A DNA stretch of 57,895 nt from an uncultured Candidatus Saccharibacteria bacterium (GTDB lineage Bacteria > Patescibacteriota > Minisyncoccia > Phycocordibacterales > DSPV01). How positions within the stretch are numbered: the first letter of the stretch is position 1; each line of letters begins with the position of its first letter. The DNA lies in contig CAYGFK010000005.1 in the NCBI GenBank assembly GCA_964349135.1, forward strand, positions 1 to 57,895. The letters are read 5' to 3'. Both the position numbers and the translations under genes were made by a program. Of the stretch, positions 6,623 through 43,905 are shown in pieces. Below the pieces are notes generated by a model that was not told the DNA's origin, searched no databases, and worked only from the letters and a program-made list of their open reading frames with translations.

Positions 6623-6695
6623 GCGCGGTTAGCTCAGTTGGTAGAGCATCTCATTGACGTTGAGAGGGCCGGGGGTTCGAGTCCCTCACCGCGCA
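6623..6695 (+). tRNA. tRNA-Val(GAC)
   Basis: GCGCGGT/ACCGCGC acceptor stem, anticodon arm TCTCA-TTGACGT-TGAGA, and TTCGA T-loop. CCA not encoded. Confidence 0.95.
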
Positions 6696-6746
6696 CAATA
6701 ATTCACGAGGACAGCTGGTAGCTGTCTGAGTGAAGTATCATTGCGA

Positions 6747-6893
6747 CGCGATGAGGGACTCGAAAGACGGAGGCCGCGAAGCCCCGCCATGGGCGGGTCG
6801 GCCGAGTCGGGGTCGCGACCTTTCGCGTAGCGAAAGAGTTGTGACCGAGTCCCGTTTATTTTATAGCGCGATGAGGGACTCGAAAGACGGAGG
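6747..6893 (+). repeat. Structured cassette (type A) flanked by inverted and direct copies of the tRNA-Val 3' end, plus a second truncated copy
   Basis: 6747-6764 is the reverse complement of tRNA 6676-6693 (17/18). Cassette spans 6765-6846, and CGAGTCCC at 6846-6853 repeats the tRNA. A 27-bp direct repeat lies at 6747-6773 and 6867-6893. Confidence 0.85.
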
Positions 6894-6896
6894 TCG

Positions 6897-7820
6897 TTAT
6901 TTTGTATGAATATGGAGGTAAATATCCTCAAGCGCTTTGACCGCGTCGCCTGCGGCGATATTGTTCTGGTGGTAGAGTCCGTCGGTGCAGTCTCCTGCGG
7001 CCCAGATACCCGTTACCGAGGTCATTTGAGTCCGAGGGTCTACTTTAATGTGTCCCCAGGTGTCGAGCTTAAGAAGGTCTTTGGCAAAGCCGGTTGCCGG
7101 GATAAGTCCAATCTCAACGAAAATGCCTCCAATCGGCATCTCTTTCTCTTCTCCAGTTTTAGTATTTTTATAAACGACGCTTTTGACAAATTTATCTCCC
7201 TTGACCTCAGTTACTTCCGTGTTTCTTTCAATACGGACTTTCTCGTTTTTCGAAAGTTTTTCGACGGTAACTGGGTCTGCACGGAATGAGTCACCACGTA
7301 TGAATATCGTCACTGATTTACAGTACGCGGCAAGCTGAGCGGCCGACTCAAGAGCGGCATTGCCTCCGCCAATCACCAGCGCATCTTGCCCCGCAAAGAG
7401 CGGGCCATCACAGGACGCACAGTAGGTAAGTCCTTTGTGCTCAAATATATCAGCCCCTTTTGCAGGCAACCGACGTCGGCTGGAACCGGTCGCGATGAGA
7501 ACCGTTTTCGTGTCGTACGCTCCCTTAGGGGTCGTGACAAGAAATCCTTCACCTTTCTTTTCGATATGGTCTACCAGTTCTCCTTGGTGAATTGAGACAG
7601 CATCGCTCGCATACGCTTCCAAGTGTTTTTTTAGATTCGTGGCAAGCTCGGGGCCTGAGATGGAGACGGTGCCAATCCAGTTCTGGATATCTTCTGAGAC
7701 AATGGATTGCCCTCCGAAATCTTTGGTCAGAAAGAGCGTTTTCAGTTTCTTTCTGGCGGCATAAACACCTGCGGCAACGCCTGCCGGTCCTGCGCCGATG
7801 ATGGTGAGGTCATAATGCAT
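6897..7820 (-). CDS. trxB: Thioredoxin reductase-like FAD-dependent oxidoreductase
   Basis: IIGAGPAG, YCASCDG (CxxC), VIGGGNAA and AAGD motifs. Start placed at ATG 7820. Confidence 0.88.
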   Translation of the reverse strand: MHYDLTIIGAGPAGVAAGVYAARKKLKTLFLTKDFGGQSIVSEDIQNWIGTVSISGPELATNLKKHLEAYASDAVSIHQGELVDHIEKKGEGFLVTTPKGAYDTKTVLIATGSSRRRLPAKGADIFEHKGLTYCASCDGPLFAGQDALVIGGGNAALESAAQLAAYCKSVTIFIRGDSFRADPVTVEKLSKNEKVRIERNTEVTEVKGDKFVKSVVYKNTKTGEEKEMPIGGIFVEIGLIPATGFAKDLLKLDTWGHIKVDPRTQMTSVTGIWAAGDCTDGLYHQNNIAAGDAVKALEDIYLHIHTK

Positions 7821-27166: not shown

Positions 27167-27289
27167 GCTTGAAGGCACGGGCGGGAATCTCGGCTACCGC
27201 CGCGGGTGGTTCTCGATTTCACTCCGTTCAATAACGAGAACCCTTTCGATTCCCGCACGCACGCAAGCTGTTGCGTGCTCTGTGCTTGA
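27167..27289 (-). repeat. Structured cassette (type B) with inverted and direct copies of the tRNA-Cys 3' end
   Basis: 23-bp exact repeat at 27167-27189 and 27284-27306. A 12-bp inverted copy lies at 27245-27256 and the cassette spans about 27190-27246. Confidence 0.85.
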
Positions 27290-35813: not shown

Positions 35814-35871
35814 GGTGAGAAGTTGCGATGCGACTGACAATTCGCTATTATCTATCGGCAACCACACAGAC

Positions 35872-35955
35872 GCGCAGGTGGCGGAGTGGTCAATCGCAAC
35901 AGACTGTAAATCTGTCGGCCAATGGCCTACGAAGGTTCGAATCCTTCCCTGCGCA
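35872..35955 (+). tRNA. tRNA-Tyr(GTA)
   Basis: ACAGA-CTGTAAA-TCTGT anticodon arm and a long variable arm. Confidence 0.95.
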
Positions 35956-36158
35956 ATAAAACAAAGGAGGCGGGATGCGAAAGCGTCCCGCCCCTCTTGT
36001 TTTAACGCGGGGAAGGATTCGAAAGACGGAGGCGCGAAGCCCCGCTGAAAGCGGGTTGCCGAGTCGGGGTCGCGACCGCCGAAGGCGAGTCGTGACCGAA
36101 TCTATAGGTTCCCTGCGCAATAAAACAAAGGAGGCGGGATGCGAAAGCGTCCCGCCCC
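35945..36158 (+). repeat. 50-bp direct repeat (tRNA-Tyr 3' end + hairpin) enclosing an inverted tRNA copy and a type A cassette
   Basis: 35945-35994 is identical to 36109-36158. 36006-36023 is the reverse complement of 35936-35953 (17/18). Cassette spans 36024-36097. Confidence 0.9.
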
Positions 36159-36187
36159 CTTTGTTTAGGGGTATTTTTAGGCCTGTG

Positions 36188-36805
36188 TTAAAACAGTGGG
36201 TCTTGAAAATCTTTCTTTACCGGTCGGATGTCCTCTAGGGATGTCTCTGGAATTGGATTTTTGATGTCGTTTACAGTGTCCGGAAGTGTACTAAAACTCG
36301 CCTCGAATCCCTTCATCATTGTTGGATTCCGAAGTGCGGCAGCGGGATGAAAAAGAGGTACGATAGTGCGCCCGTCTACCGTAAATACTTTTCCTTGGTC
36401 GCGAGTGATTTTTGCTTCAGGGAGGAAATAATTCATTGAAAAACGCCCAAGCGTTGCGATGATAGTGGGATTGATAATTTCGATTTGTCGCGTGAGATAA
36501 GGTTTATAGGCCTCAATCTCTTCGGGTAATGGGTCGCGGTTATCGGGCGGGCGCCGTTTGACGATGTTGGTGATGTATACGTCTGTACGCTTCCAACCGA
36601 TTCGTTCTATGTGTTTATCCAGAAGTTTTCCTGCACGACCCACAAACGGACGTTTCTGCTCGTCCTCAGTTTGTCCTGGCGCTTCGCCGATAAATAGCAC
36701 ATCACAATCGGGATTTCCTTCGCCGAAGACCAGATTAGTCTCAAGTGGAAGACTTGCTTTATGCATCTCTTCCGAGAGTGCTTCAAGTCGTTGCATCTTA
36801 TCCAT
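36188..36805 (-). CDS. Uracil-DNA glycosylase, family 4
   Basis: FIGEAPG..ED.QKRPFVGRAG, ITNIVK.RPP.NR.P and FHPAAALR. Confidence 0.93.
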   Translation of the reverse strand: MDKMQRLEALSEEMHKASLPLETNLVFGEGNPDCDVLFIGEAPGQTEDEQKRPFVGRAGKLLDKHIERIGWKRTDVYITNIVKRRPPDNRDPLPEEIEAYKPYLTRQIEIINPTIIATLGRFSMNYFLPEAKITRDQGKVFTVDGRTIVPLFHPAAALRNPTMMKGFEASFSTLPDTVNDIKNPIPETSLEDIRPVKKDFQDPLF

Positions 36806-42302: not shown

Positions 42303-42435
42303 ATGCCGGGAGAGATATCGGCTACCACGTAGCCAGGTGTTTTTCGACCTCGCCGACTCGGTAACGAAAAACCTTTCGATTCTCTCACGCCGTGAAGCAG
42401 TTCACGGCTTCCCGTCAATTTCGCTTTGCTCATAA
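42303..42435 (-). repeat. Structured cassette (type B) with inverted and direct copies of the tRNA-Leu(CAA) 3' end
   Basis: 13-bp repeat at 42303-42315 and 42435-42447. Inverted TTCGATTCTCTC at 42375-42386. Cassette spans about 42318-42376. Confidence 0.8.
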
Positions 42436-43601: not shown

Positions 43602-43630
43602 AAAAACGGCCCGTAAAGCGGGCCGTTTTT
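43602..43630. terminator. Bidirectional terminator between parB and topA
   Basis: AAAAACGGCCCG-taaag-CGGGCCGTTTTT. Confidence 0.85.
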
Positions 43631-43643
43631 CTATTCCTTCTTT

Positions 43644-43905
43644 TTTCGTCCCGGCTGATGCATATCGCACGCTTTGTTTGAACAGCGTTCGGGAATGGTT
43701 TTCGGTCACACCTCTCACGTTCGCCGTCGCGAACGTTCGGGTGCGACCCCGGCTCGCGGTTTTTGCTTCTGCAAAAACATCGCTCCGCCTTACGAAAACC
43801 TATGCGTACACCGTGAAGACAGTGTACTACTTCTCCACTTTCTTTCGTCCCGGCTGATGCATGTCGCACGCTTTGTTTGAACAGCGTTCGGGAATGGTTT
43901 TCGTA
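43644..43905 (-). repeat. 61-bp duplication of the topA 3' end enclosing a type A-like cassette and a 10-bp inverted target copy
   Basis: 43644-43704 vs 43843-43903 (60/61 identical). TACGAAAACC at 43791-43800 is the reverse complement of 43896-43905. Cassette spans 43705-43792. Confidence 0.9.

Follow-up and report, generated by a model that had tools for sequence, protein, structure and literature searches.

Why should the 3' end of a tRNA gene stand twice in a row, with a folded sequence between the two copies? This question is raised by a 57,895-nucleotide (nt) stretch of DNA from an uncultured Candidatus Saccharibacteria bacterium (contig CAYGFK010000005.1; the whole stretch is called the window below), in which tRNA-Tyr(GUA), the sole tRNA-Tyr gene found by ARAGORN in the 711-kb, 28-contig genome, is followed by a structured module termed the type A cassette. 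We favor, with a probability of roughly 55%, the reading that the Tyr locus is one copy of a very abundant family of insertion cassettes of the Patescibacteria (the Candidate Phyla Radiation; CPR) that have no open reading frame (ORF) and that replace the ends of the genes they enter. Members of the family share one architecture, with GTTC| and TGACC| junctions, arms that follow the sequence of the target, and a covarying fold on the tRNA-sense strand. They turn over between related genomes, and the Tyr cassette recurs with its hairpin in other families.

Architecture of the tRNA-Tyr locus

The first-pass annotation of the window had placed a type A cassette within a duplication at tRNA-Tyr. 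Both are present: positions 35945 to 36002 are repeated at 36109 to 36166 (58 nt, 97% identical), and the repeated unit takes in the tRNA end and the hairpin 3' of it, as had been claimed, namely the last 11 nt of tRNA-Tyr and the whole hairpin. The parts of the locus are as follows.

35872 to 35955, plus strand: tRNA-Tyr(GUA) (ARAGORN; Rfam tRNA, 64.1 bits), with T54 at 35936 and C56 at 35938
35939 to 35955, plus strand: proximal copy of tRNA positions 57 to 73, in use by the gene (junction statistics of 65 copy pairs and 126 cores)
35956 to 36005, plus strand: cassette trailer with a terminator-like hairpin, stem 35969 to 35992, tail CCTCTTGTTT (repeat and terminator scans)
36006 to 36023, plus strand: antisense arm CGCGGGGAAGGATTCGAA, the 5' strand of the closing helix P1 (inverted repeat and fold)
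36024 to 36097, plus strand: type A core, including the junction AAAG and ending in TGACC (match to covariance model R1 at 36014 to 36104, 73.2 bits, E=1.3e-17; covariation)
36025 to 36065, plus strand: P2 of the core, with a G-GA/GA internal loop, a GCGAAGC mini-hairpin and a CCCCGC/GCGGG hairpin
36066 to 36067, plus strand: GG linker between P2 and P3
36068 to 36097, plus strand: P3 of the core, with an invariant G.U pair and a bulged A
36098 to 36119, plus strand: displaced distal copy of tRNA positions 57 to 73, GAATC-(TATAGG)-TTCCCTGCGCA, the 3' strand of P1
36120 to 36166, plus strand: second copy of the trailer hairpin, terminator-like stem 36133 to 36156 (repeat and terminator scans)
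35823 to 35851, plus strand: promoter-like site TTGCGA-17-TATTAT, 5' of tRNA-Tyr (consensus scan; a pattern match only)

The antisense arm equals the reverse complement of tRNA positions 54 to 71 at 17 of 18 nt (94%), spanning the complement of the T-loop, the T-stem and the acceptor 3' strand of tRNA-Tyr. Inverted-repeat analysis showed that the trailer, the tRNA end and the antisense arm make up one long quasi-palindrome. The folded module measures 92 nt, and the extent of the mobile unit is about 160 nt (35939 to 36097), without an ORF. The 84-nt tRNA-Tyr that precedes the cassette is uninterrupted (64 bits), whereas a tRNA intron would interrupt the mature tRNA. The proximal copy of positions 57 to 73, although now part of the gene, would have been delivered by the cassette, with the probable left junction at 35938|35939 (GTTC|G). 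The first-pass annotation had overlooked that both strands of the outer helix, one antisense and one sense, are copies of the neighboring tRNA 3' end; its view of the structure stood, but its view of the duplication was incomplete, since without the origin of the arms the repeat was not recognized as the signature of an insertion that replaces a gene end.

The short insertion that had been noted after CGAATC in the second copy is TATAGG (36103 to 36108), which stands in place of a single C, C61 (CGAATC-TATAGG-TTCCCTGCGCA in the distal copy versus CGAATC-C-TTCCCTGCGCA in the tRNA), and disrupts the T-stem strand of the distal tRNA-Tyr end. Because this strand is broken, precise loss of the cassette would destroy the function of the only tRNA-Tyr gene, leaving it defective.

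The 418-nt intergenic region is 100% identical in the ENA assemblies ERZ27247828 and ERZ27247820, including both differences between the repeat copies. These are separately assembled samples, found via the UDG protein, one of which is possibly the source of this genome. This replication at the assembly level supports the repeat as genuine, and the fact that the two copies differ from each other argues against a duplicate made by the assembler. The UDG gene itself (36188 to 36805, minus strand; PF03167) is convergent, and the second hairpin copy adjoins its 3' end.

Sister copies with arms that follow the host gene

The following related features were found in the window.

6623 to 6696, plus strand: tRNA-Val(GAC), host of a sister type A cassette (ARAGORN, Rfam)
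6748 to 6853, plus strand: Val type A cassette, with antisense arm GCGATGAGGGACTCGAA (6748 to 6764), core, and sense arm GAGTCCC (6847 to 6853) (R1 match 6755 to 6853, 91.1 bits)
6867 to 6893, plus strand: truncated start of a second Val cassette, a 27-nt exact copy of 6747 to 6773 that stops after GACGGAGG
43697 to 43800, minus strand: type A core in the last codons of topA, with arms GGTTTTCG and CGAAAACC that match topA (R1 match, 91.8 bits)
27181 to 27256 and 42309 to 42386, minus strand: type B cassettes, core ...ACCCGCGGCGGTAGCC, behind tRNA-Cys and tRNA-Leu(CAA), with arms that match their own tRNA

The arms of the Val cassette, GCGATGAGGGACTCGAA and GAGTCCC, are tRNA-Val's own sequence. 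As Val arms match Val and Tyr arms match Tyr, the core is constant and the outer helix changes along with the gene that hosts it. The cassette in topA extends this relation to a protein gene. Its left junction reads GGTAC|GAAAACC, and its antisense arm contains GTA, the complement of the TAC that precedes the junction, indicating that the arm is templated by the target and not by a fixed GAA. The last 75 nt of topA also exist as a spare copy that has diverged, and this gives two alternative C-termini (flanks 43630 to 43900).

When the 330 nt downstream of each of the genome's 40 tRNA genes were inspected, about half of the genes carried the same layout of spacer hairpin, antisense arm, core and sense copy starting at position 56 or 57. 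At least three core types lie behind these 40 genes; types B and C also occur within the window, behind tRNA-Cys and tRNA-Leu(CAA), and a search with model R2 placed type B cores in 77 of the 301 genomes of the order.

Two further observations concern the stacks that cassettes form. Truncated type A copies lie at the distal end of stacks (window 6867 to 6893; G000:C1:49440-49472; G000:C10:20389-20420, minus strand), and in all three the sequence runs through hairpin and antisense arm to GAAAGACGG(A/G)G and then stops at one common point in P2. In addition, a 3.3-kb segment outside the window (G000:C10:1502-4950) lies between two cassette stacks that both have tRNA-Asp arms; it encodes a NUDIX hydrolase, PurD and an alpha/beta hydrolase and closes with a repeated tRNA-Asp 3' end, which would suit cargo genes that came in by the cassettes' own route.

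Fold of the type A core and selection on structure

The Val and Tyr modules keep the same stems and share GAAAGACGGAGG, GCGAAGCCCCGC and the 19-mer GCCGAGTCGGGGTCGCGAC, which occurs exactly twice in the window (expected, 0.00). As described in the first-pass annotation, the hairpin loop (CCCCGC-TGAAA-GCGGG in Tyr versus CCCCGCC-ATG-GGCGGG in Val) and the inner hairpin (C-GCC-GAA-GGC-G versus C-TTTCGC-GTA-GCGAAA-G) are swapped. From these two copies selection on structure had been proposed, with a structural alignment of additional copies as the way to check it. Alignment of 12 type A copies with MAFFT and RNAalifold, which is independent of any covariance model, gave a three-way junction (P1, P2 and P3) in which 21 of 28 pairs carry compensatory changes. 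Covariance model R1, built from these 12 copies, recovered further copies in the hundreds. Among 46 aligned copies, 97.0% of pair cells were standard pairs, compared with 73% after column shuffles and 30 to 49% when the partner was slid by 1 to 3 columns, and 26 of the 28 pairs showed double changes; this larger alignment was fitted to R1 and hence leans towards it, but the margin is large. Both alignments show covariation, which bears out the earlier proposal and supports the conclusion that the type A fold is under selection.

The folded strand is the tRNA-sense strand. At Tyr the plus strand folds at -58.8 kcal/mol versus -45.7 kcal/mol for the minus strand (z = -4.2), the G.U pair in P3 is retained in 37 of 44 distinct type A copies, and pair cells hold 63 G.U against 11 A.C. 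Several unpaired nucleotides are invariant: GAA(A) after P1, the G-GA/GA loop in P2, the RG linker and the bulged A in P3. The 16- to 18-bp P1 at Tyr is at the long end of the family range; at other loci P1 is usually about 8 bp, comprising T-loop positions 57 to 60 and the T-stem strand, with a tail of up to 22 bp.

In about 30% of type A copies, on many different tRNAs (loci L170 to L289), the inner end of the antisense arm reads GAGAA in place of TCGAA, which turns two Watson-Crick pairs into tandem G.A opposite G57-A58. An argument on whether the cassette folds as DNA or as RNA, taken from the DNA-type mini-hairpin GCGAAGC, was dropped; the 7-mer is common throughout coding sequence, and the mini-hairpin is therefore uninformative on this point.

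A fold of this kind could instead belong to an RNA that serves the host. Under this main rival, a structured RNA with a tRNA-like three-way junction would be made by read-through from the tRNA and would act as a decoy or in the maturation or quality control of tRNA; frequent gain and loss would account for its patchy distribution. The strong covariation and the conserved G.U pair speak for it, as do the recurrent tandem G.A motifs, the GAGAA variant among them, and a topology in which P1 resembles an acceptor stem and P3 is continuous with the 3' strand of P1. The Val locus, which has no terminator between tRNA and cassette, also fits. In contrast, a terminator-like hairpin separates tRNA-Tyr from its cassette, and P1 usually extends over only about 8 bp, so that an acceptor stem is mostly not mimicked; moreover, one cassette lies in the coding end of topA with topA-matched arms. 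Taking these points together with the turnover described below, we consider a host-serving RNA unlikely.

Distribution, junctions and copy pairs

Type A cores were found by the R1 search in 251 of the 301 genomes of the order, with at most 13 matches scored per genome. Their sites lie behind tRNAs of almost every type, behind tmRNA and in the end of topA. A pattern scan of one genome per species yielded 120 loci, nearly all from Patescibacteria, Paceibacterota or Parcubacteria lineages. These loci contain 126 type A cores, 101 of which lie no more than 400 nt downstream of a tRNA or tmRNA gene on the same strand, with about 20 tRNA identities among the hosts. IMG/VR viral contigs gave 102 matches to a loose pattern, and none of 80 of these loci matched the covariance model.

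For every core with a proximal copy that could be placed, GTTC| (T54-T55-C56) stood on the left, and the cores end in TGACC|; other left flanks were GTAC| at topA and GTCC| at tRNA-Ile(UAU). As GTTC is part of every tRNA T-loop, the insertion motif and the target are inseparable. In 65 pairs of proximal and distal copies, 45 were identical across all 17 positions from 57 to 73. The run of identity mostly stops at 17 to 19 nt, that is, at position 73 plus 0 to 2 nt, after which the trailers are unrelated; the length of the repeat in the family varies from 7 to more than 40 nt. Identity that ends with the tRNA and gives way to unrelated trailers fits a preformed insert that brings its own copy of positions 57 to 73 and its own trailer, and not a simple local duplication. 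As a separate observation, CCA is encoded in the distal but not in the proximal, in-use tRNA end of eight copy pairs, and the reverse holds for three (loci L170 to L289).

These junction data bear on two other explanations. Cassettes might spread with no dedicated enzyme, by natural transformation and homologous or homology-facilitated recombination, with tRNA positions 1 to 73 as the left arm, the distal copy of positions 57 to 73 as a short right arm, and the core serving strand stability or termination. The block of identity does stop at the tRNA 3' end, exactly where homology between species stops; the targets (tRNA, tmRNA and topA) are all highly conserved gene ends; and there are carriers, such as the same-genus genome G002, that have no reverse transcriptase, no gene resembling a repetitive extragenic palindrome (REP)-associated tyrosine transposase (RAYT) and no small GIY-YIG nuclease. 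Such recombination, however, leaves unexplained the antisense arm, the invariant GTTC| and TGACC| junctions, the purifying selection that keeps an 80-nt fold in over 250 genomes, and the presence of one core family on about 20 different tRNAs, and we judge it distinctly unlikely.

Alternatively, the repeats could be leftover attachment sites of a deleted integrase-borne island, a relic resembling cis-mobilizable elements (CIMEs), with a meaningless sequence in between. Direct repeats of a tRNA 3' end that start in the T-loop are a classic integrase signature, and the genome has an island with a large serine recombinase at the tmRNA gene as well as one tyrosine recombinase. The sequence between the repeats contradicts this account: it forms a conserved module with covarying pairs that recurs in 251 of the 301 genomes and on many different tRNAs. 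Nor does the tmRNA island contain such a core, and an arm antisense to the target is not expected from an integrase relic. We therefore regard this origin as very improbable.

Turnover between related genomes

The cassette at tRNA-Tyr differs between relatives. Within the genus, two cassettes, one of them of type C, follow the 96%-identical tRNA-Tyr of genome G004, and G002 carries a type A cassette that differs from the window's, as does its trailer; in another genus of the same family, the tRNA-Tyr of G009 has none. Two genomes of other families, G037 and G070, have a type A cassette behind tRNA-Tyr together with the window's TAAAACAAAG...CTTTTGTTTT trailer hairpin. In G070 the hairpin recurs after the distal copy and is followed by a run of N (locus L063, 1663 to 1761); cassette arrays seem to break or mask assemblies.

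Behind a confirmed tmRNA gene, two identical 193-nt units stand in tandem, each built from a copy of the tail, a terminator, an antisense arm that is split, and a core; after them comes the tail for a third time, here with another trailer. We conclude that the unit comprises a copy of positions 57 to 73, a trailer hairpin, an antisense arm and a core, inserted at 56|57. Both the differences in core type between congeners at one and the same tRNA, down to the lack of any core, and the tandem stacking of cassettes weigh against an RNA with a host function.

The same hairpin on both copies, as seen at Tyr, is unusual; only 3 of the 65 copy pairs have runs of at least 37 nt. The repeated units in G070 suggest, as the simplest account, that the same tRNA-Tyr-specific cassette entered a site that already bore its hairpin. 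Local duplication is another possible source.

Proposed insertion mechanism

In the gene-end replacement that we favor, the cassette would enter the T-loop between C56 and N57. The gene would take over the 3' end supplied by the cassette, and the original end would be shifted downstream, where it may pair with the antisense arm and so close the core through P1. Movement probably takes place with the unit already formed, on a single strand of tRNA sense (single-stranded DNA or possibly RNA), and would rely on a strand-transferase supplied in trans. For genes co-directional with replication, the tRNA-sense strand is the lagging-strand template. The antisense arm may act as an address: paired with either sense copy, it would bring GTTC|N57 on the left and GACC|N57 on the right to equivalent helix junctions, next to the core. 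If the strand were cut and resealed at both, scarless insertion or removal would result, much as at the ends of IS200/IS605 elements or at folded attC and CTX sites.

A bolder form of this proposal, which we put forward only tentatively, is that the cassettes constitute a naturally programmable, nucleic-acid-guided insertion system, made of a constant three-way-junction scaffold, an antisense arm of 8 to 18 nt that picks the target, and a substitute gene end. The scaffold might recruit a housekeeping enzyme or one yet unrecognized, and could be re-addressed to any conserved gene end. The substitute end would make the cassette harmless at first; once the displaced end had decayed, as at Tyr, loss would become impossible.

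Search for an enzyme

No match to RVT_1 (PF00078) was found in this 100%-complete genome, and among the 301 genomes a reverse transcriptase was present in 42% of type A carriers versus 42% of noncarriers (odds ratio [OR], 1.0). These results disfavor insertion of the retroelement type, in which cassette RNA would be copied by a reverse transcriptase that then switches template to the 3' end of a tRNA, the resulting cDNA entering the tRNA gene by recombination. Template switching onto a tRNA 3' end is known from Neurospora mitochondrial retroplasmids, and such a route would, by inference, account for the capture of both sense and antisense tRNA ends and for easy retargeting. The antisense arm, however, has no CCA end, and we assign this route the least weight of the explanations considered here.

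The recombinases of the genome are one tyrosine recombinase (contig C13, region of 6929 to 7459) and one large serine recombinase (contig C2, in the tmRNA island); neither is at the cassette. Two candidate sources were rejected: the tmRNA island with its large serine recombinase, which has no core, and the 3.3-kb tRNA-Asp segment with its NUDIX, PurD and hydrolase genes, which encodes no recombinase.

A weak lead is a gene for a 226-amino-acid RAYT-like protein of the Y1/HUH type.

G000:C12:2968-3645, minus strand, outside the window: RAYT-like Y1/HUH gene, 226 amino acids, HYH motif (weak match to the REP-associated tyrosine transposase model)

The RAYT-like gene was present in 62% of type A carriers versus 32% of noncarriers among the 301 genomes (OR, 3.5; p=1e-4) and, with one genome per family, in 66% versus 39% (OR, 3.1; p=0.04). 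Homologues are multicopy, with up to nine matches, in many genomes of the order, which is unexpected for genomes of about 0.7 Mb. Small GIY-YIG nucleases were associated with type A at an OR of 2.05 (p=0.04) and are absent from several cassette-rich genomes. Four small GIY-YIG paralogues occur in the 0.7-Mb genome (G000:C20:170-406, C9:1464-1688, C9:34880-35047 and C4:65-292); one of these comes directly after tRNA-Gln, and in G037 the tRNA-Tyr with its load of cassettes is directly preceded by such a gene.

Several points count against gene-end replacement by a mobile cassette. The screens for reverse transcriptase, recombinase, RAYT-like and GIY-YIG genes tied no enzyme to the cassettes. The association of the RAYT-like gene with type A is modest, and the gene is missing from 95 of 251 carriers (38%), including the near-closed congener G002; none of the 12 RAYT-like copies checked had a core in its locus, and the gene showed no association with type B cores (77 of 301 genomes). 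No model tested accounts for the rewriting of the two arms when the target changes. The presence of the same hairpin on both Tyr copies needs an extra step, for instance that the element had been inserted there once before or that the stretch was duplicated locally. Finally, the tandem G.A motifs and the tRNA-like topology would also fit a functional RNA.

Relation to known systems

In the window, only tRNA exceeded the gathering thresholds of Rfam 15, and nothing credible matched the Tyr locus at E<=10; ten typical family members gave no Rfam match on core positions at E<=0.1, only tRNA and tmRNA being found. In the literature searched we found no description of the cassette family.

Integrative elements that target tRNA or tmRNA genes, and CIMEs, likewise insert within the 3' part of a tRNA gene and keep it intact with a replacement 3' end, and they too have flanking direct repeats of the tRNA end (58 nt at Tyr) and stack in tandem. 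The cassette differs in being about 160 nt long with no gene or integrase, in presenting one structured core on about 20 tRNAs, tmRNA and a protein gene, and in its arm antisense to the target, which attachment (att) sites do not have.

Folded sites such as integron attC and the CTX-phage attP hairpin, on which XerCD acts in integrative mobile elements exploiting Xer (IMEX), resemble the cassette in a fold specific to one single strand, in structure that is conserved over sequence, in encoding no enzyme, and in regenerating the target, hence forming arrays. However, inspection of the consensus, by eye only, showed no R or L boxes, no GTTRRRY core and no dif-like 11-6-11 site; the cassette junctions read GTTC|GAAT and TGACC|GAAT. 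No integron integrase was found in a search limited to the general tyrosine-recombinase family, which gave one match. Unlike attC, the cassette has paired arms that copy the target and vary with it, and its core is a three-way junction.

The "peel and paste" elements of the IS200/IS605 family, the ORF-less palindrome-associated transposable elements (PATEs) and REP/RAYT systems are likewise strand-specific and rich in hairpins. They insert 3' of a short fixed motif without target duplication, for which GTTC would be the counterpart here, although every tRNA T-loop contains it. As in IS200/IS605, cut sites could be presented by base pairing beside the foot of a hairpin, and this genome has one RAYT-like gene. 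In contrast to IS200/IS605, the pairing arm has 8 to 18 nt rather than 4, and the cassette carries a copy of the downstream part of its target; in contrast to REP/RAYT, the RAYT-like gene is missing from 38% of carriers and unlinked to cores, and type A has no GTAG REP signature.

The RtT repeats of the Escherichia coli tyrT operon (RF00391) are also noncoding repeats behind tRNA-Tyr, each with a copy of the tRNA 3' end. No RF00391 match was found at E<=10, and RtT is a local tandem repeat without an antisense arm or a type A core. In fungal mitochondria, mobile ORF elements such as those causing C-terminal duplications of atp6 substitute the end of an essential gene, and the original end remains as a downstream pseudo-copy. 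Those elements encode a homing endonuclease, whereas the cassette, with its conserved folded core, has no coding content. The cassette is also unlike a miniature inverted-repeat transposable element, as its inverted arms copy the target and not the element, and its repeat varies in length from 7 to more than 40 nt. Nor did a comparison by eye bring out a fit to hammerhead, hepatitis delta virus, box C/D, k-turn or integron-box motifs. Each of the nearest known kinds thus fails a defining feature.

Significance

If the cassettes are what we propose, the ultra-small genomes of the CPR, otherwise stripped of mobile DNA, carry a gene-less selfish element at up to a dozen or more sites each. This element would sit in the ends of the most conserved genes, mend its own damage and bear a readable address, and it would offer a new model for how nonautonomous elements are retargeted. 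At Tyr, the TATAGG indel allows three forms to be told apart by their sequence, namely the locus with its cassette, the empty site and the excised circle; the predicted joints are GTCGTGACC-GAATCCTTCCCTGCG for the circle, which would contain no TATAGG, and GAAGGTTC-GAATCTATAGGTTCCC for the empty site. Should the address helix guide an enzyme, the family would represent a compact site-specific insertion chemistry. It would also account for the odd tRNA-tail repeats that break CPR assemblies, and it would mean that the tRNA 3' ends of CPR genomes are chimeric.

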